Source: Parcubacteria group bacterium Gr01-1014_38 | GTDB lineage: Bacteria > Patescibacteriota > Andersenbacteria > UBA10190 > CAIZMI01 | Direction: 5' to 3' | DNA length: 64,000 bases | Assembly (NCBI GenBank): GCA_007376145.1 | Contig: VMFP01000001.1 | Span: 122,835 to 186,834 of the forward strand | In this document: positions 1,134-61,649 of the stretch, piece by piece | Layout: the number at the start of each line of letters is the position of its first letter | How positions within the stretch are numbered: the stretch's first letter is position 1 | Notes under the pieces: model-generated | Told to the model about the DNA's origin: nothing | Databases searched by the model: none | What the model saw: the letters and a program-made list of their open reading frames with translations, nothing else | Program-made: the position numbers and the translations under genes

Positions 1134-1614
1134 CCGTCTTCTCCTTTCTGCTCCGGGGGGCGTCCTGCAGTTTTCCTCCGACGACGACCGTTACCTCCGC
1201 CTCGAGCCCGTGTGGGAATTCCAACGTGACCGTATGTTGGCCAGGTTCATGGATCGGCAGTGGGAGGCGGACCACATCCGCAGGCAGCGAGATGTGCAGC
1301 GCGTTCTCGATGGCAGCGACAACCTCCTTGGCCGTGACGGCTCCGTGAAGTTTCTCCTGCGGGCCAAGTGGTCGCTCCAGGCGAATGGTTTTTTGGTCCG
1401 TGAGCTCCGCGAGTCTCTGCATCGTCGCGAGTTCTTCTTCCGAGGCCCGTGTGGCCCGTGCCTTCTGTGCTTCGGCTGTTCGGGCGTGGCTTCCGGTTGC
1501 GACGGCGGCCAGTTCGCGGGGGAAGAGGAAATTCCGTGCGTAGCCATCGGCGACTTCGACCACCTCGCCGGCCTGGCCGAGGTTCTTGACATTCTCGAGG
1601 AGTACCACCTTCAT
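1117..1614 (-). CDS. rplI: 50S ribosomal protein L9
   Basis: ATG at 1614. N-terminus MKVVLLENVKNLGQAGEVVEVADGYARNFLFP is the classic L9 signature. It overlaps the pyrG start by 17 nt. Confidence 0.9.
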   Translation of the reverse strand: MKVVLLENVKNLGQAGEVVEVADGYARNFLFPRELAAVATGSHARTAEAQKARATRASEEELATMQRLAELTDQKTIRLERPLGPQEKLHGAVTAKEVVAAIENALHISLPADVVRLPLPIHEPGQHTVTLEFPHGLEAEVTVVVGGKLQDAPRSRKEKTDGGKA

Positions 1615-3190: not shown

Positions 3191-4575
3191 CGGGTCAGTT
3201 GCATATGGAGCTCCTGGAGCTGCTCCCGTTCTAGGGGGGATGGAGCGCCGAGGAGTACTTCTTCCCCGTTCTGGTTCTTCGGGAACGCAATCACTTCTCG
3301 AATGCTCGGCTCGCGGAGCATGACCATGAGCAGGCGATCCACCCCAGGGGCAATGCCGCCGTGTGGAGGAACACCGAATTCAAAGGCCTCTAAGAGGTGC
3401 CGGAATTGCTGCTTCGCCTTCTCCATATCAAGGCCGATAAGCCCAAAGATCTTCTCCTGGAGCGCGCGGTCGTGAATGCGGATGCTTCCGCCGCCCACCT
3501 CGACGCCGTTGCAGACGAGGTCGTACTGTGTGCTCCGCACGCGGTGCGGATCCTGGTCGAGCACGAGGATGTCCTCCGGGAGGGGAGACGTGAACATATG
3601 GTGGGAAGGAGCGTAGTGCCCCTCTTCGAGTTCCGACTCGAAGAGGGGGAAATCCATCACCCAGGCGAACGCGAGCGCTCCCGACGCTTTCTCGGTGTCG
3701 GTGCGAAGGTCCGGGCGATCCGTCCCGTACTTCTCCATCGCTTCCGTGTAGGAGAGCCGCGGAAAAGGCTGCCGCGCAATCGGCGCGCCGAGGCTGGCCA
3801 CGACCGTCGTGAAGAGGTGTTCAGTCAGGTTCAGGACATCCTCGCGGCCGACGAAACTCATCTCGAGGTCGAGTTGGGTGAACTCGGGTTGCCGGTCTCC
3901 TCGCTGATCTTCATCGCGGAAACACCGGGCGATTTGAAAATACCGGTCGAACCCGGCCACCATGAGAAGCTGCTTGTACTGCTGCGGTGACTGCGGGAGA
4001 GCGTAGAACATCCCGGGATAGAGGCGGGAGGGAACCACGTAATCACGAGCGCCTTCTGGCGTACTCTTCGTGAGGATCGGGGTCTCAATTTCCAGGAACC
4101 CCTCCGCGTGAAGAAAGGCGCGAATTTCCGTGATGAACCGATCGCGCAGCGCGAGATTCCGCTGGAGGCGAGTCCGCCGGAGATCCAGGAAGCGGTACCG
4201 GAGGCGCACGTCCTCGCCGACCGGTGTTTCCTGTGCAATCTCAAATGGCGGAGTCTTTGCGACCGCGAAGGTCTCCACGGTCGCGACGTGCACTTCAATA
4301 TCCCCCGTCGGGATTTTCGGGTTCTTGAGGCGCTCCGGACGTAGAGCGACGGTGCCACTGACGCGGATCACGTCTTCGTCGTGAAGTTCGACCGGTGGTG
4401 CTTCTGCTTTGAATACGAGTTGTGTCACGCCGTACCGGTCGCGGAGATCGACGAATCGTACGCCGCCGTGGTCACGGCGGGCATGGACCCATCCGCAGAG
4501 CGTCACCGTCTGGCCGGCGTGTTCAGCGCGGAGCGCTCCGCAGGTGTGCGTCCGGTAGGTTGTCGCGTCCGTCAT
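3187..4575 (-). CDS. aspS: aspartate--tRNA ligase, bacterial-type core but only 462 aa
   Basis: ATG 4575. OB-fold N-terminus. Class II motif 2 region reads [52 protein letters not shown], and the C-terminus has GGGSIRIH...[16 protein letters not shown]. There is a 4-nt ATGA overlap with the peptidase gene. Confidence 0.94.
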
Positions 4576-4614
4576 GTGTGGTCAGCGTAGCCGAGAACAG
4601 CGCCACGAGACAAG

Positions 4615-4648
4615 AAAAAAGACCCGTTCCTCCGGAACGAGTCTTTTT
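4615..4648 (-). terminator. bidirectional-type intrinsic terminator after the 217-aa gene
   Basis: A6 tract, then GACCCGTTCC-tcc-GGAACGAGTC (10-bp stem with one mismatch), then T5. Read on the minus strand, the hairpin is followed by TTTTTTCTTG, 22 nt after the stop at 4670. Confidence 0.7.
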
Positions 4649-4669
4649 GGTAGGCTCTTCTTCCTCCTT

Positions 4670-5323
4670 TCAGACGGCCGTCGCTTGCGGAGCTGGGTGC
4701 ACCTGAATTTGGTCTCCGGTGAAGCGAAGAAGGTAGTCGGGCTGAATCGGCGTGGCCGCGTCACCGAGGCGATTCCCGTCTGCGTCCTTCCGCCACACCT
4801 TCACGGGGTTACCGAGGTTGTCAAGCAAAGGCTTGCGAGCCGTGAGGCAGATGTCCACCGCGTGTTCCCCGCAGACCTCTTGGCCGCCCACGATGAGGGG
4901 GTTGAGGAACGCTCGCACCTGCCACATTGCTTCTACGCACATCGTGTGGAGTGCCTGCTGAACAAGAGGGCGAGTATTGACGAACTGATTGGTCGGTTGG
5001 GCGTACTCACACCGTGCGAACACGAAGCGCACCACGGAGAATCCCTTGTTGTCCTGATTGCGCCGCTGCGAGAAGGCGTCCACCATTGCATAGCCACCCC
5101 GCTCCAACTCGCCGAGGAACTCGACGAGCCCGACGTTCTCGACGGGCGCGATGGCGGGTTCACGGCTTGGAGGGCGCGCACGCTTGCGCGTCTCGTCCGG
5201 TGTCTCGTCCTCGCGTTGATGTATACAGCGAGGGACGACCTTGGGGTTGGAGAAGCTGAACTGCAAAGCGATCAGCCTCACCGCTCTGCTCACGTTGATC
5301 AGACCTTGCGTTGTAGCGTCCAC
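4670..5323 (-). CDS. hypothetical protein, 217 aa, no motif I recognise
   Basis: GTG start at 5323 with GGAG 6 nt upstream (5333..5330) and an in-frame TGA just upstream. Third-codon positions are mostly G/C, as in the surrounding genes. The overlapping 292-aa plus-strand ORF (4574..5452) is Arg/Leu/His-rich antisense noise. Confidence 0.7.
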   Translation of the reverse strand: MDATTQGLINVSRAVRLIALQFSFSNPKVVPRCIHQREDETPDETRKRARPPSREPAIAPVENVGLVEFLGELERGGYAMVDAFSQRRNQDNKGFSVVRFVFARCEYAQPTNQFVNTRPLVQQALHTMCVEAMWQVRAFLNPLIVGGQEVCGEHAVDICLTARKPLLDNLGNPVKVWRKDADGNRLGDAATPIQPDYLLRFTGDQIQVHPAPQATAV

Positions 5324-5337
5324 TACCGGCTCCTTTC

Positions 5338-5368
5338 AAAAAGAGAAACGAACTCGTTGACAACGAGC
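5338..5368 (-). terminator. terminator/attenuator-like hairpin just upstream of the SD of the 217-aa gene
   Basis: Minus strand reads CTCGTTG-t-CAACGAG followed by TTCGTTTCTCTTTTT, then GAAAGGAGccggtaGTG. Confidence 0.45.
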
Positions 5369-5619
5369 GAAAGCTTTGAAAGAACGAAGCTCCGTACTCT
5401 ACCAGCGTCCTACACGCGCGCACCTTCACTGCGTAGTCGCTGGCCGGAGTAATGCCCCTGGGACCAGGGAGTCGGGAACGCCCGCGTTGTTCCTTAGATC
5501 CCTCCAGGAGTGGCGGCGCTGTGGAGGGACAGCACCGCCGCTCCCGGAGACGTCTCTGTGGATACAAGCTTGTACCGGTGGGTATCGCTTGAAACCCCAG
5601 GGAGAACCCCCATGACGAA
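5369..5619 (-). promoter_or_regulatory. long GC-rich structured 5' leader (candidate cis-regulatory RNA or separate sRNA)
   Basis: Lies between a near-consensus promoter and the attenuator hairpin. On paper it contains a ~20-bp interrupted hairpin at 5502..5549 (CTCCGGGAG/CGGCGGTGCTGT loop CCCTCC ACAGCGCCGCC/CTCCTGGAG on the minus strand), CCCTGGtcCCAGGG at 5456..5469, a GGTACAAGCTTGTATCC palindrome and further stems. A 39-43 codon uORF (5494..5613 or ..5622) is an alternative reading. Confidence 0.4.
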
Positions 5620-5625
5620 CATCGC

Positions 5626-5654
5626 ACTATACCGCGGGCTTGTCTGTCTGTCAA
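5626..5654 (-). promoter_or_regulatory. sigma70-type promoter for the leader and 217-aa gene
   Basis: Minus strand: TTGACA (5654..5649), a 17-nt spacer, then TATAGT (5631..5626). Confidence 0.6.
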
Positions 5655-5668
5655 GAGGCCGCTAGACT
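5640..5668 (+). promoter_or_regulatory. candidate promoter for tRNA-Lys
   Basis: TTGTCT (5640..5645), a 17-nt spacer, then TAGACT (5663..5668). The -10 ends 7 nt before the first tRNA nucleotide. It overlaps the divergent minus-strand promoter. Confidence 0.45.
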
Positions 5669-5674
5669 GCGCCT

Positions 5675-5749
5675 GCCCCCGTGGCGTAATGGCAGCGCAC
5701 GCGCCTTTTAAGCGCTGAGGTCCCAGTTCGAATCTGGGCGGGGGCACCA
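5675..5749 (+). tRNA. tRNA-Lys, anticodon UUU, CCA encoded
   Basis: Hand-folded cloverleaf. Acceptor GCCCCCG/CGGGGGC; D arm GCGT-AATGGCA-GCGC; anticodon stem with loop C-U-UUU-A-A; variable loop GAGGT; T arm CCCAG-TTCGAAT-CTGGG; discriminator A; then CCA. One C-U mismatch at the 27:43 position. Confidence 0.93.
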
Positions 5750-5826
5750 CACTTCGCCCTCGGCCCGGCTCGGGCTTCGCGTGTCAGGCCATGCCGCTTC
5801 ATCTCGGGGGCCTTCGAGTACTTCCC

Positions 5827-5869
5827 GCGAAGTGTGCCCCGCGAAGCGAAGTAGCGAAGTGGGGCACCC
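5827..5869. repeat. cluster of CGAAG / CGAAGTGGGGCAC motifs forming a 7-bp hairpin
   Basis: gcgaagtGTGCCCCgcgaagcgaagtagcgaagtGGGGCACcc. CGAAG occurs four times. GTGCCCC (5834..5840) pairs with GGGGCAC (5861..5867). The same CGAAGTGGGG(C/T)AC motif recurs at 8751..8834. Confidence 0.6.
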
Positions 5870-5961
5870 TATGCTATGCTTGTGGATAAGGGGATCTCAG
5901 CTTTCAGCAGGATTTTCCGGACGTCCTCCACTCGTACCAGCACAAAACACCACATCGTGAC

Positions 5962-6597
5962 ATGAAGCGTGCCTTTCTCTTCTCCAGCGGGATCACCGCG
6001 ATCATCGTCGGAGTGTTTGCCCTTGCCTACCTCACGTCGGCGGGCACCAGTCAATTCGCTTTCACGGGCCAGGCGACCGTCCGTGGGCACGACGTGAGCG
6101 GGAAAACCATGGACGTGTACTTTACGAAGCTCTCGGAGCGCGCGCAGGCGCTGGGGTTGGGGAACAGCATCACGGTCAGCGTCGGCAGCGCGACATTCCA
6201 TAAGCGCGCGGCGGACGGAACGCTCCGGCGGGTGAAACAGGGGAACATCGCTGTCGGGGATCGAGCGACCGTCCGGGGGTCGGTGAAGAACAACGACCGC
6301 TTCGTCGCGTCCCGGGTCGAGGTTGTGGATACGGGTTTCGTCATGACCGGGAAGCTCCGAACATTTAATCGGACTCTCCGCCGGATGACGGTTGACGTCA
6401 CCACCTCGACGTACAAGCCCACTCGGTACCAAGACAAGACTGTGGAGTTCATCTTCTCCGAAGCGACGAAGTTTTATACGCAGGGCGTGGGCAAATCAAT
6501 TGAGGACGTGACCGCGAGCGATCAGAAGGTCCGCGTGCAAGGAAAGGAAGTGGGTACAGACCTCGAGGTCACGTCCATGAATGAAAATGTTCCCTAA
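5962..6597 (+). CDS. hypothetical secreted or membrane-anchored protein, 211 aa
   Basis: N-terminal MKRAFLFSSGITAIIVGVFALAYL anchor, then beta-rich repeats of the type V.V.G....V.. . The N-terminus is paralogous to the next gene. Confidence 0.72.
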   Translation: MKRAFLFSSGITAIIVGVFALAYLTSAGTSQFAFTGQATVRGHDVSGKTMDVYFTKLSERAQALGLGNSITVSVGSATFHKRAADGTLRRVKQGNIAVGDRATVRGSVKNNDRFVASRVEVVDTGFVMTGKLRTFNRTLRRMTVDVTTSTYKPTRYQDKTVEFIFSEATKFYTQGVGKSIEDVTASDQKVRVQGKEVGTDLEVTSMNENVP

Positions 6598-6619
6598 TTC
6601 TTAACACACCAAACGACAC

Positions 6620-6994
6620 ATGAAGAAACGCGCTTTTCTGCTCTTGGTGGGCATCGCCGCAGCTTTCGTGGTGGTCGCGAGCATCGCCGCCGTGACCCTC
6701 GCACAGACGCCGCCCTACGCGGTCAAGATCCGCGTGGTGGATAAAATCGAGTCGGCGAAGATCTTCGAGGGATTTGTGCTCGAACAGACCCGAGGGAAGA
6801 CCTCGATTCTCGGGGATCAGATAAACTTCCGGGTCCTGAGCACGACCACCGCGTTTACGAAGGGAAGCAAGGGGCGGTCAACCAAAGACTGGCTCAGCGG
6901 TCTCAAGAACGAGGACGTTGTGACGGCCACCGGGTGGTATCGGTCGTCCGACAAGACATTCGAGCTGGCGAAGGTCGTCAATCGCTCACGGTAG
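6620..6994 (+). CDS. hypothetical secreted or membrane-anchored protein, 124 aa (small paralog of 5962..6597)
   Basis: The MKKRAFLLLVGIAAAFVVVASIAAV anchor resembles the preceding gene. Same strand, 22-nt gap. Confidence 0.68.
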   Translation: MKKRAFLLLVGIAAAFVVVASIAAVTLAQTPPYAVKIRVVDKIESAKIFEGFVLEQTRGKTSILGDQINFRVLSTTTAFTKGSKGRSTKDWLSGLKNEDVVTATGWYRSSDKTFELAKVVNRSR

Positions 6995-7083
6995 TCGGAG
7001 CCTCTCAAACGCGGGCGCGCCAAACCGACCGGGCAATGCCCGGCGGGGCGTTGCGCCCGTCCGGCAGGTAGGCGAGACGCCTC

Positions 7084-37412: not shown

Positions 37413-37706
37413 ATGAACCAGGATTCTGGTGAGCGTCAGATGTTTGACGCCACGTGTTCGAATTGCAACCAACCCACCCAGGTGCCGTTCCAGCCGACGG
37501 GTGAACGTCCGGTCTACTGCAGCAACTGTTTCCGGCAGGTCCGCGGCGAGCGTCGCGGGCCGGGAGGGGGTGGACAGGGTGGCGATCGGCCAATGTACGA
37601 CGCGACGTGCTCCACCTGCGGCAAGCCGACCCAAGTGCCCTTCCGTCCCACGGAAGGTCGCCCGGTCTACTGCCGCGAGCATTATCGAGGCCCAAGCCGC
37701 GCGTAA
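37413..37706 (+). CDS. small protein with two tandem CxxC-x17-CxxC zinc-ribbon repeats (97 aa)
   Basis: ATG 37413. MFDATCSNCNQPTQVPFQPTGERPVYCSNCF and MYDATCSTCGKPTQVPFRPTEGRPVYCREHY are separated by a Gly-rich linker. The ORF-track N-terminal extension (from 37161) overlaps the helicase start. Confidence 0.8.
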   Translation: MNQDSGERQMFDATCSNCNQPTQVPFQPTGERPVYCSNCFRQVRGERRGPGGGGQGGDRPMYDATCSTCGKPTQVPFRPTEGRPVYCREHYRGPSRA

Positions 37707-40549: not shown

Positions 40550-42427
40550 TTAGTCGGGTCTTCCGTTCGTGCTGACGCGCAGTCGGGCACCGCGAGGGAC
40601 TCCGACCCAGCCAGCGTGACCACGATCCGGCGCGATACTATAGACACACTCGGTATACCCTCGCACCTTCGCCGTGACCGTCGCGTTGCTCAGGAGCATG
40701 GACAGAAGATGCAAGTAATTGTCTGGACGATCGATGCCGGACGAAATATGACAACCCATCAGGCTGAGTGTATCAATCTTGCCGCGCAGGAGTTCGCCAA
40801 ACGCCGAAGCCTCATGGAGCGGGTTCTGCCGAAGACAACGATTTTCGCCTGCTCGGTTACACAGCCTGTTGCCAGCACCGACATGCTGCGCATCGGCACT
40901 GCCATGTCCATAGATCCACACATGTAACGGGCTGCCGCGGTAGTAGTCACGCACCGTCTGGATGGCAGCGGGGATGGAGGCAACAAGCATTGTATAACTA
41001 GCAAGCCGGCGGGATCTCATAATCGCAAGATCAGTGTCGTGAGTGGCGTCCCGATACTCTGGAGGTGGGTTTTCGATCAGGATCAGCGTGGTATTGGCCG
41101 CAGTTGGGTGTACAGCCGCAACGAATTTTTCCGTCTGGCCTTGGCCTTGTCCCGCATCAGCCGGCGGGCTGGCAACATTGATGAAGAAGGTGCGCGTTTC
41201 GCCTCCCCTAAACGCGACCTGCACCCCATACACGCCTGGCCGACGAGCCAGAAAGTATACTTCAGAACAGTTCTCTGCCTCGTAACAATCACCGTCGGGA
41301 TCGTCGGGATGACGGTTCAAGCGAAAGAAGCCATCGTAGTCCCAATCCGGGTCCGTGATGGACTGTTGAGCGCGGTATGGGTCGCTCTCCCCCCGAGGAT
41401 CAGGTGCCACGATCCGCAGCTCTTCCATCCTTTGGGGATACGATTCGTAGTACCATCCCCCCTCGCCCATGAAAGCCATCGGGTGCTCGGCCAGCTCTGG
41501 CCCTTCCCAGCTCGTGTCCGCGTCAGTGTCGTATAGCGTCACCGTTCGATCATAGACGAGCCCGTTGTACGCCGGATCCTCACTGACCGTTGTGTGTCGA
41601 AGGGTGCCGGTGTGTATGAACGGCTCATTACGGAAGTCTCTGCATCCCCTGACGACGATCTCCTCACTGCCCTGCCACCAAGAGGCGTCGAAGAACAACC
41701 AGCTCTCACTCGGACAGACCTGATTGTCTGGCGATGTAATGAAAACCTCGACATTGGCGCTGGGCTGGCTGGTCAGTCCGACGTCATACACATTCCGAGG
41801 CCACCAGCTGTCAGGATCTCCTTCCTCACTGAATGACTCCGGCGCCTGGACACCGGTCGGATGGCGAGGAGTGATAACGAGGCCAGCCTCGCTAGCTCCT
41901 GTGCTGCCACTGGATGCGCTGACTGCCCCAGTGAGAGCCGTCACCGTATTATTCCAGTGGATTGCCAAGAGGAGCACAGATGCATACGTGCCTCCGCTAG
42001 AAGCTTCCAGCGCCGGTGTCGCGGCACCCCAGTGGCTACCACCGTTATCCAGGGTAGAGGCAGCGGGTGCAATGGCACGGGAGGGAGTACGAGCGACAGA
42101 AAGCCATGCTTCGCCGAAATCTCCGAAATCGCTGTTGACCGAAGGAAGCGATGGCTCATCGTCTACACTTTGAGCTGCTGGCCGGTCCTGGCTTTGCCGT
42201 GGCGGTTCCTCCGGGAAAAGTGACCACCATTTCTCATCCCGAGCCTCATCCTGCTGGTCTGCACCAGCGATACTGATTTCCATCGGCTCCTCAGTCAGCA
42301 AGCGAATCTGATCGGCTGTATGTGCTGCCCCGAAATCAGGCAGTGCAAGTGCAAGCAGATCGCCAGGTGGCAGGCGATCTTCCAGGGCTTCAACCCGGAA
42401 TACGGTACGTCTTTTGCCTTTGAGCAT
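40550..42427 (-). CDS. large secreted-type protein (625 aa) with an LEDR-type N-terminus, an adhesin-like middle and a C-terminal His/Cys domain
   Basis: ATG 42427 with a GAAAGGAG SD. N-terminus MLKGKRRTVFRVEALEDRLPPGDLL. Middle segment SQPSANVEVFITSPDNQV...WWQGSEEIVVRG...HTGTLRHTTVSEDPAYNG...VTLYDTD. C-terminus LHVWIYGHGSADAQHVG...LSLMGCHISSG. Confidence 0.75.
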   Translation of the reverse strand: MLKGKRRTVFRVEALEDRLPPGDLLALALPDFGAAHTADQIRLLTEEPMEISIAGADQQDEARDEKWWSLFPEEPPRQSQDRPAAQSVDDEPSLPSVNSDFGDFGEAWLSVARTPSRAIAPAASTLDNGGSHWGAATPALEASSGGTYASVLLLAIHWNNTVTALTGAVSASSGSTGASEAGLVITPRHPTGVQAPESFSEEGDPDSWWPRNVYDVGLTSQPSANVEVFITSPDNQVCPSESWLFFDASWWQGSEEIVVRGCRDFRNEPFIHTGTLRHTTVSEDPAYNGLVYDRTVTLYDTDADTSWEGPELAEHPMAFMGEGGWYYESYPQRMEELRIVAPDPRGESDPYRAQQSITDPDWDYDGFFRLNRHPDDPDGDCYEAENCSEVYFLARRPGVYGVQVAFRGGETRTFFINVASPPADAGQGQGQTEKFVAAVHPTAANTTLILIENPPPEYRDATHDTDLAIMRSRRLASYTMLVASIPAAIQTVRDYYRGSPLHVWIYGHGSADAQHVGAGNRLCNRAGENRCLRQNPLHEASAFGELLRGKIDTLSLMGCHISSGIDRPDNYLHLLSMLLSNATVTAKVRGYTECVYSIAPDRGHAGWVGVPRGARLRVSTNGRPD

Positions 42428-42492: not shown

Positions 42493-42521
42493 AATATAGA
42501 GAAAAAGAGGGCAACTGTCAA
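42493..42521 (-). promoter_or_regulatory. sigma70-type promoter of the 625-aa gene
   Basis: Minus strand: TTGACA (42521..42516), a 17-nt spacer, then TATATT (42498..42493). The TGA that ends the truncated PIN copy lies inside this -35 hexamer. Confidence 0.6.
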
Positions 42522-56825: not shown

Positions 56826-58919
56826 TTACTCCATCACTGGTCGGAGTCCAAGGAGCCCGCGAGAGCGATGCGTGGTAAGGAGGTCGCGCGGAGAGACCGT
56901 TCGGTTTCCAACGCCAAAGTGAGGAGCCGATTTCTCCTGCGGGGCAGCGCGGAGTGTTGGCGCCTCACCAGGGCTCGTTCCTTCGGTGGTGAGCAGCGTG
57001 ATGAATGTTCCCGGCTCTTGAACCAGCAGCGGCTCAAGAGAGAAACGCACCCACTGGTTATCGTCTTCGCCGCGGATCGGGAGACGATTTGCGCGGACAT
57101 CGGGTCCCTCCACGGTCTGGCGGAGACGGAGGACGAACGTTCCCATATCCGCGCGTCCGGAATAGGTTGCGACGAGTGTCTCCACGCCACGGAGCGTTCC
57201 GGCGGAGACGGGAAGCTCCGCCACCACCACTGATTCCTGCGTTAGCTCGCCGAGAATACCCGTATAGGCCGGCTGGTGGTATACCCATGCGTAGGGCAGC
57301 CCGTTCACCGTCGCGGTGAAGACGGGCGTCCGTCGGCGGTAGTATTCGTCGATGAAATCGTTCGCGGGGTGATCGGGAGACCGGCCAAACATGTTGCGGT
57401 AGAGCACGACGTATCCAACCCGGAGTTGATCTCGGGCACTCAAATGAAAGACTGGCCGGTGGACGAGCGCCTTGAGCTCTTCTGGGTACCAGGAGGCCAC
57501 GGCGATCTTCCCGCCGTCATCGAGTTGATTGAGGTACCGCGCAACCTGATCGAGTCCCTCCCCCCAGCCGAGCTCCTGACTGAAGCTTGGTGGAAACAAG
57601 CGGTTATAGTACGCGAGCGCATACGGGCCAAGGAAGAGAAGTTCTCCCGCCAGCGGCAGGACGGCAAGGAGGAACACCGTTTTTGCCGCTCGGGCTTCCG
57701 TCCACTGCGGACGAACACGGCTGACGAGCGCCGCCAGCCCGATCACGCCGAGGAGGTTCACCACGGGGAACACGGGAAGCAGATAGCGGTCGCCCTTCTT
57801 GGCCCCAAACGTCATGGCCGCGGTGAAGAGCACGACGAACGCGAGAAGGATCCAAAGCGTACGGCGGGATGTCCCGCTCAGCGTCGCGAGCTTTGGCATG
57901 CTTACCGGCAGAAGCAGGAGAAGGGCGGCCAACCCGATCAGTGAAGGGATGGTCGTGCGTGCGAGCAGCGTGCTGGGGTAATGCCAGGGCTTAATGCTGT
58001 ACGCATCGGCCATGTGGTGCGGGGTAGAGAAAGCCGCCGAAAGGTCACGCTGAACAATTTTGACGTTTCCCACCGGATCCGGTACCCAGAGCAATCCCGG
58101 CCACAAGACCAGGGTCGTCGCCACGATGATCACCAGCCACTGCCCGAGAAGGCGAAGGCGGACTCGCCCCTCTTCCCTCCCCCAGGCCTGCCGATCCGCA
58201 AACAGGCTGAGTGTTGCCATGGGCAGCAGAATCAACCCAGGGATCTTCGAAAGGATCGCGAGTGCGCCAAAGATTCCCGACCAGACGAGCGCGGCGGAGG
58301 GCACGGTGTGCGGATGTTCCTCTCTCCCCTGCATTGCGGCGAGAAAGAGGATGAGCGAGAGTGCGGTAAAGCCCGCGAGGAGCGCGTCGACATGCACCAC
58401 CTTGCTGTAGCCGATCAGGAACGGATCGAGCGCGATCACGAGTGCCGCTGCACGTGCCACCCAAGGTCTCGTCAGGCGCCGCAGAGCAAGGAACAGCGCG
58501 GCGACCAGTACGCTGTTGAGGAGCGCGAACGTCACCTGGGTCCCCTGGATGAAGAGTTGGAGCGACTCTGCGGTGAACGGGATATTTTTTAGGCGTGCAA
58601 TGATCCGCACGCTGATTCCCACCAGCCACAGGGTGGGAATGCCCGGATGCGTCGTCTGCAAGGTCTCATTGAAGTGAAACTCCTGGACCGCTTGGAGGAA
58701 ATTCACGCCTCGCCCCATCCAGCTTTTCTCGTCTGCGGTCAGGAACAGGCCAATACCGATGAGGCGTGGCGCCAGGGCAATGAGGAAGAGTACCCCGGTC
58801 TCACCAAGGAGTTTCCGACGTTCTGGAGACTGCAGCCATCGCCGCATTCGCACCGAGTGTACCACCGGTGAGGCCTCCCTGCCCTTTGAGGCGCGGGACA
58901 TCCTGCATGGCTCTACCAC
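56826..58919 (-). CDS. GT39 (ArnT/PMT-type) membrane glycosyltransferase, paralog a
   Basis: FLTADEKSWMGRGVNFLQAV...TTHPGIPTLWLVG plus many TM helices, with a C-terminal ~95-aa module shared with paralogs b and c. The start is uncertain: GTG 58919 (ORF maximum), ATG 58901 (9 nt after a weak -10) or ATG 58847. Confidence 0.85.
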   Translation of the reverse strand: MVEPCRMSRASKGREASPVVHSVRMRRWLQSPERRKLLGETGVLFLIALAPRLIGIGLFLTADEKSWMGRGVNFLQAVQEFHFNETLQTTHPGIPTLWLVGISVRIIARLKNIPFTAESLQLFIQGTQVTFALLNSVLVAALFLALRRLTRPWVARAAALVIALDPFLIGYSKVVHVDALLAGFTALSLILFLAAMQGREEHPHTVPSAALVWSGIFGALAILSKIPGLILLPMATLSLFADRQAWGREEGRVRLRLLGQWLVIIVATTLVLWPGLLWVPDPVGNVKIVQRDLSAAFSTPHHMADAYSIKPWHYPSTLLARTTIPSLIGLAALLLLLPVSMPKLATLSGTSRRTLWILLAFVVLFTAAMTFGAKKGDRYLLPVFPVVNLLGVIGLAALVSRVRPQWTEARAAKTVFLLAVLPLAGELLFLGPYALAYYNRLFPPSFSQELGWGEGLDQVARYLNQLDDGGKIAVASWYPEELKALVHRPVFHLSARDQLRVGYVVLYRNMFGRSPDHPANDFIDEYYRRRTPVFTATVNGLPYAWVYHQPAYTGILGELTQESVVVAELPVSAGTLRGVETLVATYSGRADMGTFVLRLRQTVEGPDVRANRLPIRGEDDNQWVRFSLEPLLVQEPGTFITLLTTEGTSPGEAPTLRAAPQEKSAPHFGVGNRTVSPRDLLTTHRSRGLLGLRPVME

Positions 58920-58942
58920 GCGAAAGACCGATTGTCAAACTC

Positions 58943-58971
58943 TTGACACGCGCTACGGACGGTACCATACT
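58943..58971 (+). promoter_or_regulatory. sigma70-type promoter firing into an ORF-poor 0.7-kb spacer
   Basis: TTGACA (58943..58948), a 17-nt spacer, then CATACT (58966..58971). This is the same -10 hexamer as the hrcA promoter. The -35 is part of the palindrome TTGTCAAactcTTGACA, which gives a back-to-back minus-strand TTGACA (58938..58933). Confidence 0.55.
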
Positions 58972-59327
58972 CGCTTCCACTGGTGTTCTTTGTCATAAAG
59001 TCGTGCCGGTCAGACGGTGACGAAACTCCGAGGAGACGCGCAAGCGTCAAGAGAGTCCCGGAGGTGACCGTTCAAGCCGGTCGAATGCGCGCAGAAGGGT
59101 AGGAATAACATTTCACCTTCCAGGTGTTGCCCTCGTCGCACACAGCAGGACTCGATGAGGGAAATTCCCCACGCCTGAAGGAGGTAGGTGGAACAGTCCA
59201 AACTGCGTACACGCTTGTCTCTTCCGGCCGGAAACGACAAGCGGCGCTACGCGGGGGAGTAGCCGTCGAACGGAGAATACTGCGTGTATGCAGGAAGTTC
59301 AGTCTCAAAAGGGCTCGCGGACTCTCG

Positions 59328-59391
59328 TGGCATATTCGTGAACCTCATGAATATGTCTAGTGGCATATTCATATAAACCTCATGAATATGA
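59328..59391. repeat. two tandem 29/31-nt units, each with an internal 7-nt inverted repeat (operator-like)
   Basis: gtggCATATTCgtgaacctcatGAATATG (59328..59356), then tcta, then gtggCATATTCatataaacctcatGAATATG (59361..59391). Confidence 0.8.
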
Positions 59392-59527
59392 CGCGGAAGG
59401 AGTACTGCCCTGGACGGACTTCTTGATATACCGCATGAAGGGAATATTCCCCTCGACGCTTGCGAAGAGAGGAGGAACCTGCCCCTTCTAAGACTAAACC
59501 TATTCTTCTGCGCGATTTGTCCTCTTT

Positions 59528-59561
59528 CATTGTCGTTCCCAGGCACCATTGTCGTTCCCAG
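59528..59561. repeat. direct repeat cattgtcgttcccag x2 (19-nt period)
   Basis: 59528..59542 and 59547..59561 are identical. Confidence 0.8.
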
Positions 59562-59567
59562 ACATCA

Positions 59568-59616
59568 GGGCATTTGCTCTCTTTATGTCCGTCTGGCCGG
59601 GGCATTTGCTCTCTTT
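59568..59616. repeat. direct repeat gggcatttgctctcttt x2 (32-nt period)
   Basis: 59568..59584 and 59600..59616 are identical. Confidence 0.8.
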
Positions 59617-59630
59617 TGTCTGGGAGCACC

Positions 59631-59668
59631 CCCGCTCGTCCCCATCGGCGAGCGGGATTTTTCTTATT
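59631..59668 (+). terminator. plus-strand intrinsic terminator overlapping the stop codon of GT39 paralog b
   Basis: CCCGCTCG-tccccatcgg-CGAGCGGG followed by ATTTTTCTTATT. On the minus strand the hairpin is not followed by a U-tract. Confidence 0.7.
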
Positions 59669-61649
59669 CCGAGTGCGAGGCGTCTCCTTGGTAGACGAGC
59701 GCGTATGCGAGATCCCCTTCTGCGAGAGACGCCGCCCGCTTCTCTCCCGACCGGAGCGGTCGTCGGAGCACCACCAGGCGTCCCGGGAGGATGTCGTTCG
59801 GTTGATACCGAACGGTGACGGCATTGCCGGGCTCCCCGGAGGGCGAAGTGAGCGCAACGTAGTAGGTCACCCCCTTAGAGTTCGGGAGCGGTTCAAAGCG
59901 AATTTCTTTCCAGGCGTTGTCCTCCAAACGGCTCACGCCTATCCGGACCGTGCGCAGATCGGCACCGTCGGGATTCTCGCGGACGTGGAGGAGAAGCTCC
60001 CCCCGATTGCTCCGAGACGAGAACGTCGCAAAGACCAGCCGTACGCCGCTCAATCCATCCGATTCCGCGACGACTGTTTGGCCGACCTCGACCGTTGTCG
60101 GGGCATTCCCGGTACCGCGCTCCGGCGCGCCGGCACGGACAATTTCTCCTACGTGCTTTGGAAAGCGATCCACAGAATCTCGCGCGTAGATCCAGGCCAT
60201 CTCGAGACCGACAACGCGGATTACCGCTACCGGTTCCACGTTTGCAAATTCCTCGAGGACCCTCGTCGGACCGGAATCCGCCGGTCGCCCCCGCATATTT
60301 CGATAGGTCACCACGTAATCCACGCGCGCATCATCGCGGCTGCTTAAGCTCATGGTTGTCCCGCGGAAAAACTCCCGGAAGATGATGGGATACCAGGTCG
60401 CCACCTGGAGTTCTGGAGCAAGGGGATGGGCATTGAGTACTGCCGCAGCCCGCTCGAGTCCTTCGCCCCACCCCGCTTGGGTGGGCTCTTCCTTCGGACT
60501 GAAGGGACTGACGTACGCCAGGGCATAGGGACTGAGCTGAAGGTTGAGAACGGCAAGAACGCAGATGGTGCCGGCGGCGAGAAGTTTTCCGAAGCGATCT
60601 CGGCGGATGAGTTCACCGAGGCTGACCCCCGCGAAGACATCGAGCACGAGAAGTGCCGGAAGAAGGTAGCGATCGGCGCGCTTCTCTACGAGATTCACGA
60701 AGAGGAAAAACCCTCCGAAGAAGAGGAGGAATACCAATGCCTCCCGGCGCCGGTGGGCAGCGCGAAGACATGCGAGCGCTCCCAGTGCGGCGAACAGGAG
60801 AGTGACCGGCGTCGTGCGGGCAAGAAGCGCACGGGCGTAGAAGAGATTGTCGCGCGTCCGGACTTCCGCCGATTCACCGAAGTGTGACAGCGTAACGACG
60901 GACTGGACGTCGCGAGCAGCGTATCGGACATTCGGGAGAACGTTCAGCCACATGGAGGGCCACAGAATCAGGAAGGTCGCGGTGGTAACACCGACCCAGG
61001 TCGCCGTATCGCGAATCCATCGAGCCCGCATGTCTGGAACGAGCAGAAACACCCCGGCGGCGAAGGGGACGAGGAAGACCGCCGGGAGTTTCGTGAGCAG
61101 CGCGAGCCCCCCGAGAAATCCGGAAAGAACAAGAATCCGGCGTGCGCCTTGGCGGACGTACCAGAGGGCGGTAAGGACCGAGAGGAGCATGAGAATCGCG
61201 AGGAGGGCATCCACATGCGCGAGCTGGGAATACCCAACGAAAAACGGATTCAGGGTAAGGAGCACGCCAGCACCAAGACCACTGCGGACACCCCAGAGTC
61301 GTGCCACGAGGGCAGCAGCCATCCCGGTCCCAAGGGATACCGCGATGGCGATAGGAAGCTTCCCCGCGGAACGGAAGGAGCCGACGGTCGGGCTTTCCAT
61401 GCGCTCTCCCGTCAGCCATTCTCGCGCTTCAATGCCCGCACCGATGAGAAGCATCGCGGTGACGCCGGGATGGGTTCCCTGGAAGGTGCCGCCGGGATCC
61501 CCACGGCGGAGCGCAGTCGTGAACGACTGCGCGCGGAACATCCACTGCGGTTCGTCCGCGGTGAGGATCGCGCCGAGACCCTGCAGTCGAACGAGCAGCG
61601 CGAGCGTCGCCGTGATAAGTCCTACCATGACGAGCGGACGGAATGCCAT
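59664..61649 (-). CDS. GT39 (ArnT/PMT-type) membrane glycosyltransferase, paralog b
   Basis: ATG 61649. LTADEPQWMFRAQSFTTAL...GTHPGVTAMLLIG plus many TM helices, with the C-terminal shared module at 59808..60083. Confidence 0.88.
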   Translation of the reverse strand: MAFRPLVMVGLITATLALLVRLQGLGAILTADEPQWMFRAQSFTTALRRGDPGGTFQGTHPGVTAMLLIGAGIEAREWLTGERMESPTVGSFRSAGKLPIAIAVSLGTGMAAALVARLWGVRSGLGAGVLLTLNPFFVGYSQLAHVDALLAILMLLSVLTALWYVRQGARRILVLSGFLGGLALLTKLPAVFLVPFAAGVFLLVPDMRARWIRDTATWVGVTTATFLILWPSMWLNVLPNVRYAARDVQSVVTLSHFGESAEVRTRDNLFYARALLARTTPVTLLFAALGALACLRAAHRRREALVFLLFFGGFFLFVNLVEKRADRYLLPALLVLDVFAGVSLGELIRRDRFGKLLAAGTICVLAVLNLQLSPYALAYVSPFSPKEEPTQAGWGEGLERAAAVLNAHPLAPELQVATWYPIIFREFFRGTTMSLSSRDDARVDYVVTYRNMRGRPADSGPTRVLEEFANVEPVAVIRVVGLEMAWIYARDSVDRFPKHVGEIVRAGAPERGTGNAPTTVEVGQTVVAESDGLSGVRLVFATFSSRSNRGELLLHVRENPDGADLRTVRIGVSRLEDNAWKEIRFEPLPNSKGVTYYVALTSPSGEPGNAVTVRYQPNDILPGRLVVLRRPLRSGEKRAASLAEGDLAYALVYQGDASHSE

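Follow-up and report, generated by a model that had tools for sequence, protein, structure and literature searches.

We examined a stretch of 64,000 nucleotides (nt) from Parcubacteria group bacterium Gr01-1014_38 (contig VMFP01000001.1, positions 122,835 to 186,834), referred to below as the window, with emphasis on a gene for a protein of 217 amino acids (aa) and the long structured leader in front of it. The gene is located on the minus strand at 5323..4670 (654 nt including the stop codon) and starts with GTG. An extended Shine-Dalgarno (SD) sequence, GAAAGGAG, occupies 5337..5330, with its GGAG 6 nt upstream of the start. The N-terminus MD(A/V)TTQGL lines up with that of the closest homologues, which supports GTG 5323 as the start codon, and the codon score of the open reading frame (ORF) was 0.217 per codon compared to a mean of 0.224 for the long ORFs of the window. 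Upstream of the gene, a sigma-70 promoter, TTGACA-17-TATAGT, occurs on the same strand at 5654..5626 (-35 at 5654..5649, -10 at 5631..5626) and matches the consensus at 11 of 12 positions. It is the sole promoter-like match within 4000..7000 and one of only three sites in the window scoring at least 11/12, and it is likely the counterpart of a promoter, cTTGACAaa-17-TAnnnT, that is found throughout the protein family. Downstream of the gene, a bidirectional intrinsic terminator, AAAAAGACUCGUUCC-GGA-GGAACGGGUCUUUUU (4648..4616, minus strand; 15 base pairs (bp), -19.8 kcal/mol, z = -4.7), is flanked by A and U tracts and insulates the unit from aspS. On the other side the unit adjoins a gene for tRNA-Lys(UUU) (5675..5749, plus strand, 62.9 bits), which is oriented divergently and has a weak promoter (TTGTCT-17-TAGACT, plus strand) ending 6 nt before the tRNA 5' end. 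The -35 of this promoter and the minus-strand TTGACA overlap back to back and have the palindrome-like TTGACAGACAGACAA in common. An earlier note, made from the sequence alone, had described the near-consensus promoter, the GTG start with its GGAG about 295 nt further downstream, the normal codon bias, the insulating terminator and the adjoining tRNA-Lys, and all of these were borne out by the analysis. Two antisense ORFs were regarded as shadow ORFs and discarded: one of 292 aa on the plus strand and one of 196 aa on the minus strand that overlaps the tRNA. We concluded that the unit is monocistronic, strongly promoted and transcriptionally self-contained.

With transcription expected to start about 7 nt past the -10, near 5619, the 5' untranslated region (UTR) of the mRNA would be about 296 nt long. 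The distance between -10 and start codon, 302 nt, is nearly double the largest value from the homologous loci, 160 nt (locus L080), the others reaching at most 146 nt. The locus was recovered with 100% identity over 1071 nt in an independent Logan assembly (L082), indicating that the long leader is not an artefact of the metagenome assembly; a search for other strains with the same protein, made for leader variation, returned the identical sequence alone. The 296-nt leader folds to -134.5 kcal/mol (z = -5.17), and none of 200 shuffled sequences was as stable. The individual hairpins previously listed for it are present as well (5550..5501, 5469..5456 and 5368..5352). With Rfam, the window passes the gathering threshold for tRNA-Lys alone, and Rfam 15 scans of 4000..7000 and 5320..5660 gave at best 19.8 bits compared to thresholds of 50–120.

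The protein had been taken for an orphan without any motif that could be assigned. The second part of this description still stands, but the first does not, as at least 550 clusters of relatives occur across the phyla of the candidate phyla radiation (CPR). The exact protein is annotated solely as hypothetical, from 'Parcubacteria group bacterium Gr01-1014_38'. A word-indexed search yielded 12 homologues and a three-sequence profile 171 at E<=1e-20, all of them 'hypothetical', and a search of 1.84 billion cluster representatives (50% identity) with a hidden Markov model yielded 667 at E<=1e-3, of which 550 had E<=1e-10. With few exceptions, these representatives are 190–235 aa in length and match from end to end. 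Relatives are encoded in 23 GTDB species genomes and on 48 further metagenome contigs; the labels of the 23 genomes comprise Andersen-, Lipton-, Nealson-, Uhr-, Taylor-, Jorgensen- and Lloydbacteria, WWE3, 'Saccharibacteria' and generic Patescibacteria/Parcubacteria, and two of the 23 genomes are labelled Gammaproteobacteria. The family alignment contains the invariant motifs QFSFSN, VRFxFA, WRVRAFxNP and WxKD. Searches of Pfam, NCBIfam, PADLOC, PHROGs and PDB sequences were negative for all 12 members even when the thresholds were permissive, and the confident AlphaFold model of the protein found no fold match in PDB or BFVD. The isoelectric points in the family range from 5.6 to 10.3; as the family is not consistently basic, charge lends no support to nucleic-acid binding. 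TIGR-Tas was not regarded as a candidate, given that there is no tandem guide array and no Pfam domain in the protein. Gene neighbours vary between the family loci. In 10 of 55 loci (L004, L008, L009, L010, L022, L029, L031, L034, L044 and L065), the start codon is preceded, at a distance of approximately 130–335 nt, by the end of a tRNA gene (Arg, Lys, Phe, Glu, Ala or Leu) with the same orientation. An upstream tRNA is far commoner than tRNA density predicts, whereas the tRNA-Lys of the window is divergent instead.

We then compared the upstream regions of the family, using a set of 57 non-redundant sequences. A promoter scoring at least 9/12, in most cases a near-consensus TTGACA-17-TAnnnT, was present in 45 of them, with 38–146 nt between the end of its -10 and the start codon. 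On the sense strand, 31 of the 57 leaders contain a pyrimidine box, G[CT]TCT[CT]T, usually 10–25 nt past the -10, compared to 3 on the antisense strand and a mean of 2.1 (maximum 7) in shuffled sequences. In about half of some 60 loci, the elements recur in the same order: pyrimidine box (GYUCUUUYC), hairpin and extended SD GAAAGGAG. Elsewhere, the box follows only 1–2 of 14 other strong promoters (>=11/12) in the sampled loci, and over the whole window the 8-mer GYTCTTTY is not enriched (13 found, 9.3 expected).

The main class of leaders, class I, is represented by 13 aligned sequences, in which the box and CCAAAAUCCAAACACCGAAAGGAGGCCCGCCGUG are separated by a long hairpin. Of 22 pairs predicted by RNAalifold for the class-I hairpin, 6 display compensatory double changes. 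In the hairpin, 98.6% of the cells are paired, compared to 43–56% over the whole structure when the partners are slid against each other, and the covariation score lies above those of all 500 shuffles. G-U pairs are frequent in the hairpin, suggesting that it is an RNA structure rather than a DNA palindrome. A covariance model of the class-I leader (R1) was searched over both strands of 350 kb from 78 sources and matched exclusively just upstream of the family gene. Training loci scored 97–135 bits and nine distinct non-training loci 19–59 bits (E = 2.6e-11 to 0.17), while antisense scores were about one third of the sense scores. Class-I leaders of ten homologous loci matched no Rfam 15 family, and literature searches returned nothing on the protein family or the leader motif. 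In its structure, compensatory changes, strand and gene association, the class-I leader is, as judged by sequence comparison, a conserved structured cis-regulatory RNA motif by generic criteria.

A second variant was found in seven loci of the WWE3 type (L018, L019, L020, L050, L053, L058 and L060), in which approximately 100 nt upstream of the start codon are conserved. It comprises a first hairpin, CUUUUCCCAAGCCCG..CGCGCUUAGGAAAG, and a small second hairpin that visibly covaries (CCGGAUAACCGG versus GUCGCCUCAGGCGAC), followed by UUAAAUUUCCAAGCCCUUG and GGGAGG. The box-like CUUUUCCC of this variant pairs with an internal GGAAAG and has the SD GGGAGG as an alternative partner, a predicted arrangement reminiscent of a switch. 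Within 220 nt, these loci have no consensus promoter.

In the window, the conserved element is confined to the last ~65 nt of the leader. It comprises, all on the minus strand, the pyrimidine box GTTCTTTC (5385..5378), which is the 5' element of the family leader, a hairpin GCTCGTTG-T-CAACGAGT (5368..5352; as RNA GCUCGUUG-U-CAACGAGU) of 7–8 bp with -6.7 kcal/mol and z = -1.4, and the pyrimidine tract UUCGUUUCUCUUUUU followed by GAAAGGAG (5351..5330). The five closest homologues by identity (L001, 62%; L076, 55%; L077, 54%; L079, 49%; L080, 47%) have promoters with TTGACA or TTTACA, a 17-nt spacer and TAGGAT, TAGGCT, TAGCTT or TATTAT as -10. Their box, G(T/C)TCTTTC(C), follows 14–20 nt past the -10, or 81 nt in L080. 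A six-sequence alignment of the window and these five leaders, starting at the box, revealed a common hairpin core of 5 bp, CUCGY-loop-RCGAG, with U-A as the fifth pair in the window and two relatives and C-G in the remaining three; this is the one covarying pair in the window's own leader variant. In the relatives, the hairpin is followed by 20–35 nt, CGUCCCUUUUUUC, and then GAAGGAG or GAAAGGAG. Box, CUCGY/RCGAG hairpin, CCCUUUUUUC and SD are thus shared between the window and its closest relatives (47–62% identity). Conservation of the leader in relatives, the lack of which would have counted against the earlier note, holds for this proximal part, but not for the GC-rich part of about 220 nt upstream of it, which is missing from all relatives examined. 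Likewise, the proposal of a new cis-regulatory RNA controlling an uncharacterized protein is supported by a conserved, gene-specific leader absent from Rfam, but applies to the last ~65 nt only.

Secondary structure predictions suggested a role of the box. In the fold of the window leader, 5384..5374 is paired with 5341..5331, forming an 11-bp helix over the SD. Pairing between the box (UUCUUUYC) and the SD (GAAAGGAG) around the central hairpin was likewise obtained in most minimum free energy (MFE) folds of the segments from box to start codon (for example in L006, L009, L014, L015, L017, L027, L031, L038, L044, L049, L068, L072 and L075), and this recurrence led us to infer that the SD is occluded. 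When 125 candidate 10-mers per leader were ranked as partners of the SD, the box came first in 11 of the 30 leaders and no lower than fifth in 18. The box:SD helix of class I has 91.7% of its cells paired.

The distal segment of the leader (5622..5404, minus strand) is approximately 219 nt long, has a GC content of 63% and is predicted to be very stably structured. The distal 230 nt alone gave z = -4.5, and their plus-strand complement -2.9; among 98 background windows of 230 nt (mean z -0.41, standard deviation 1.32), three reached z <= -4, with a minimum of -5.9. The segment contains a hairpin of 21 bp with a CCCUCC loop (5550..5501, minus; -42.1 kcal/mol, z = -6.1), a second hairpin CCCUGG-UC-CCAGGG (CCCTGGtcCCAGGG; 5469..5456, minus), and a last long hairpin at ~5444..5386, which is followed by the U-rich CUUCGUUCUUUC. 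A blastn search with the distal 240 nt against the window, 80 family loci, and phage and plasmid collections matched the segment itself alone, indicating that it is neither a repeat nor a known mobile element. No Rfam match was obtained for the segment, and no counterpart was found in the five closest relatives. As no terminal inverted repeats were seen around it, a classical miniature inverted-repeat transposable element is unlikely. The segment is flanked by two 11-mers, GGTATAGTGCG on the left (5633..5623, minus), which includes the active -10, and GGTAGAGTACG on the right (5403..5393, minus), which includes the -10-like TAGAGT; they are identical at 9 of 11 positions. The latter -10 also appears in an extended form, TGgTAGAGT (5404..5396), 10 nt upstream of the pyrimidine box, with no -35 seen upstream of it. 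Speculatively, the 11-mers may represent a target-site duplication caused by an insertion of about 220 nt at the ancestral -10, in which case the left -10 would be the functional promoter element and the right one a relic. If not such a relic, the proximal TAGAGT may be a secondary promoter of low strength. In L080, an AT-rich stretch of 81 nt (1443..1523) separates the -10 (TAGGAT) from the box, as opposed to 14–20 nt in the other close relatives, indicating that insertions are tolerated at this position and that a far promoter can still serve the gene. Based on these comparisons, the distal segment is probably a lineage-specific insertion between promoter and conserved leader; possible roles are those of a 5' stabiliser, an extra regulatory domain or a separate small RNA (sRNA) ending at the U-rich box region. 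In L001, approximately 260 nt between the family promoter and a divergent gene for 128 aa are unannotated (4604..4865); they display no similarity to the distal segment of the window.

Taken together, we favor a reading in which a CPR-wide gene is preceded by a recurrent SD-occluding leader that exerts translational control and that, in the window, carries a distal lineage-specific insertion. We assign this reading as a whole a probability of roughly 55%. According to this model, the mRNA would start near 5619 at the family-typical consensus promoter and end at the terminator 4648..4616. Its last ~65 nt would be the lineage version of the family leader, consisting of box (GUUCUUUC), hairpin, pyrimidine tract and extended SD. 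The box, the adjacent pyrimidine tract or both would pair with GAAAGGAG and occlude the ribosome-binding site, and a factor acting in trans on the hairpin would determine how much of the time the SD is accessible, the conserved hairpin in between being the probable recognition site. This factor is most plausibly a protein, possibly the 217-aa product itself, so that control would be translational or autoregulatory rather than by transcription attenuation. The 219-nt insertion (5622..5404) would lie outside the conserved element and may stabilise the 5' end or provide additional control.

Several observations weigh against this interpretation. SD occlusion and the nature of the effector are proposals, as are the start near 5619 and the read-through of the 219-nt segment. 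In class I, seven of the box:SD pairs display only one-sided, wobble-compatible changes and one pair a single double change, so that covariation does not prove the box:SD helix, and U-rich boxes pair promiscuously with purine-rich SDs in general. In the MFE folds of L001 and L076, the SD is paired with the adjacent pyrimidine tract and not with the box; in the closest relatives, this tract, CCCUUUUUUC, is also able to pair with GAAGG. The model R1 did not detect the leader of the window. By a looser pattern, 20 of the 58 family leaders are devoid of the box, and leader length goes down to about 40 nt; the box-hairpin-SD element is thus not universal. The proximal TGgTAGAGT could act as a second promoter. 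Finally, a promoter elsewhere in the window (TTGACA-17-TATATT, 11/12, 42521..42493, minus) is followed by a 65-nt leader, tcgcttcgtgtagtatttttccaGCTCTTTagacaattttctttctttttGAAAGGAGcactcgcATG, with a layout like that of the proximal leader: a GCTCTTT box, the tract UUUCUUUCUUUUU, GAAAGGAG and ATG. The ORF behind it (40550..42427, minus) encodes 625 aa without a Pfam domain. As this strongly promoted gene has a similar layout, part of the layout may be a generic signal of high expression and not the mark of a specific regulator.

If the latter point is extended to the whole leader, the proximal elements would be generic signals of high expression or mRNA stability and the distal segment a neutral insert whose stable folding merely reflects its GC content, without any specific regulation. 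Apart from the shared layout at 42521..42493, GTTCT-like boxes following other strong promoters in the window and the three of 98 background windows with z <= -4 are in line with this view. However, it does not account for a class-I leader that is conserved in sequence and structure across the CPR, carries compensatory changes and is exclusive to the family gene in 350 kb, nor for a hairpin core that covaries among close relatives, and the box is found on few of the other strong promoters in the sampled loci. We consider it improbable. Somewhat better placed, although still unlikely, is an RNA-plus-protein pair, in which the promoter 5654..5626 would drive a separate sRNA of ~230 nt (~5619 to 5385), terminated or processed upstream of the box. 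Transcription of the 217-aa gene would then mostly begin at the weak proximal TGgTAGAGT (5404..5396) and yield a leader of ~70 nt, as is typical of the family. In favor of such a pair, the predicted structure of the distal segment is exceptional on the minus strand (z = -4.5 versus -2.9 on the plus strand), its last long hairpin (~5444..5386) precedes the U-rich CUUCGUUCUUUC, and its absence from the leaders of relatives makes it separable from the conserved leader. Moreover, the proximal TAGAGT, located just upstream of the box, resembles the -10 of relatives (TAGGAT, TAGGCT, TAGCTT), and the exposed CCCUCC loop of the 21-bp hairpin is similar to an anti-SD and recalls CcsR-type sRNAs (a sub-threshold likeness). 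In contrast, the terminator scan returned no terminator-like site between 5619 and 5368, and the proximal -10 lacks a -35, unlike the promoters of most family members examined, with their consensus TTGACA. Nothing marks the distal segment as a gene of its own, since no homologue, repeat or Rfam family was found, and L080 also has extra sequence between promoter and box.

The earlier note had seen the last hairpin as the expression platform of a riboswitch or attenuator, that is, a leader of ~280 nt with an aptamer in which the hairpin 5368..5352 and its U-tract form a conditional terminator before the SD. The hairpin with its T-rich tail was indeed picked up by the terminator scan, the overall structure of the leader is strong, and the hairpin core is conserved with one covarying pair. 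Nevertheless, the putative aptamer, the distal 219 nt, is conserved in none of the relatives examined, and the hairpin is weak (-6.7 kcal/mol, z = -1.4) compared to the true terminator of the unit (-19.8 kcal/mol). The terminator geometry is specific to the genome of the window: in the relatives, 20–35 nt more are present before the pyrimidine tract, and AUUUUGG, UGUUAAG, GCUUUGG, UUAAUGU or AUAUCUC is found directly 3' of the homologous hairpin, with no U-tract in any of the five. The window lacks this spacer, and therefore its hairpin adjoins the U-rich tract and resembles a terminator. The weakness of the hairpin and the lack of an adjacent U-tract in all relatives make a conserved attenuator unlikely; no Rfam riboswitch matched, and we disfavor this explanation strongly. 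Least credible is a small protein of 39–42 codons (5622 or 5613 to 5494), the other alternative raised before, which would be translated from a leaderless or near-leaderless mRNA. An open frame exists, and the genome does use leaderless starts, as exemplified by aspS with its ATG 8 nt past the -10. The ATGs of the small ORF, however, are misplaced at nt 4 and 13 past the -10 instead of 7–9, its codon score is 0.035 per codon (in-frame 0.22±0.20, off-frame -0.30±0.27), and GC at codon position 2 is 0.55–0.59 compared to 0.41–0.43 in real genes. It has neither an SD nor homologues, its region is missing in relatives, and the frame crosses the 21-bp hairpin of -42 kcal/mol.

Among known systems, the family leader is comparable to SD-occluding leaders such as the fourU and ROSE RNA thermometers and the autoregulatory leaders of ribosomal and other RNA-binding proteins. 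In both, for the family leader by prediction, a U/C-rich stretch pairs with a purine-rich SD within a 5' UTR of ~60–130 nt, with a conserved hairpin between them as a possible site of protein binding or sensing, and the family leader was found upstream of one gene family only. It differs in having no sequence or structure match in Rfam and in that its box:SD pairing is backed by compatibility alone and not by double compensations. With riboswitch and attenuator platforms, the window shares a hairpin and U-rich tract directly before the SD, but the hairpin is weak, and neither the U-tract adjacency nor the upstream 'aptamer' is conserved. Highly expressed monocistronic mRNAs may carry stabilising stem-loops at the 5' end, for example the ompA 5' UTR and the Bacillus 5' stabilisers. 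The unit resembles these in its consensus promoter, strong SD, own terminator and stable 5'-proximal hairpin of 21 bp; unlike the class-I leader, such stabilisers normally display no gene-family-specific conservation across phyla. The hairpin 5550..5501 also shares its CCCUCC loop with CcsR1 (RF02791), the best sub-threshold Rfam match on the minus strand. Membership in this family was rejected at 17.3 bits compared to a gathering threshold of 65.3, with one hairpin matching alone.

Other loci in the window were recorded alongside. According to the earlier note, the remaining promoters lie only 7–10 nt from their start codon or RNA 5' end. This is about right for aspS (8 nt) and tRNA-Lys (6 nt), but not for the promoter 42521..42493 with its 65-nt SD-bearing leader. 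The gene aspS is apparently leaderless (region 4615..4575, minus), as its promoter, TTGTCT-17-TACGCT, ends 8 nt before ATG 4575 and no SD is present. In this genome, leaderless genes seem to coexist with a small number of genes whose leaders are long and bear an SD. On the plus strand at 58943..59660, a strong promoter (TTGACA-17-CATACT, 10/12) with a GTTCTTTG box 13 nt past the -10 is followed by ~690 nt without a long ORF, located between two minus-strand genes. This region contains the direct repeats GTGGCATATTC..CCTCATGAATATG (two copies, ~59330-59395), CATTGTCGTTCCCAG (two copies, ~59530-59560) and GGGCATTTGCTCTCTTT (two copies, ~59568-59615), and a terminator-like hairpin near 59630-59655. 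An Rfam scan of the ORF-free region 58900..59700 found no family, and we regard 58943..59660 as a candidate non-coding RNA or regulatory region. A direct repeat of 97 nt with 71% identity, the copies being 153 nt apart, occurs at 37427..37676 (plus).

CPR bacteria, or Patescibacteria, represent a large share of bacterial diversity, yet gene regulation in this group is almost uncharted and many of its conserved proteins are unassigned. The most interesting result is at the level of the family, namely a CPR-wide protein of unmatched predicted fold together with a leader that is absent from Rfam. The protein family occurs in many CPR lineages, appears to be built for very high expression, as judged by consensus promoter, extended SD and own terminator, and has a confident model without a match among solved folds. 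A more far-reaching version of the interpretation, which we put forward only tentatively as it is less probable than the SD-occluding leader outlined above, is that the box-hairpin-SD leader constitutes a new CPR-specific class of cis-regulatory RNA, either an autoregulatory protein site or riboswitch-like, controlling a widespread protein of a fold not represented in PDB and elaborated here by a 219-nt sensor module or a co-transcribed sRNA with a CCCUCC anti-SD loop. In the favored reading, the window is a tangible example of a leader into which a large structured segment was inserted. The family-specific structured leader, supported by covariation, could be among the first cis-regulatory RNA motifs described for the CPR. 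If it represents a protein-binding autoregulatory site, it would give a first indication of what the protein does, namely bind RNA.

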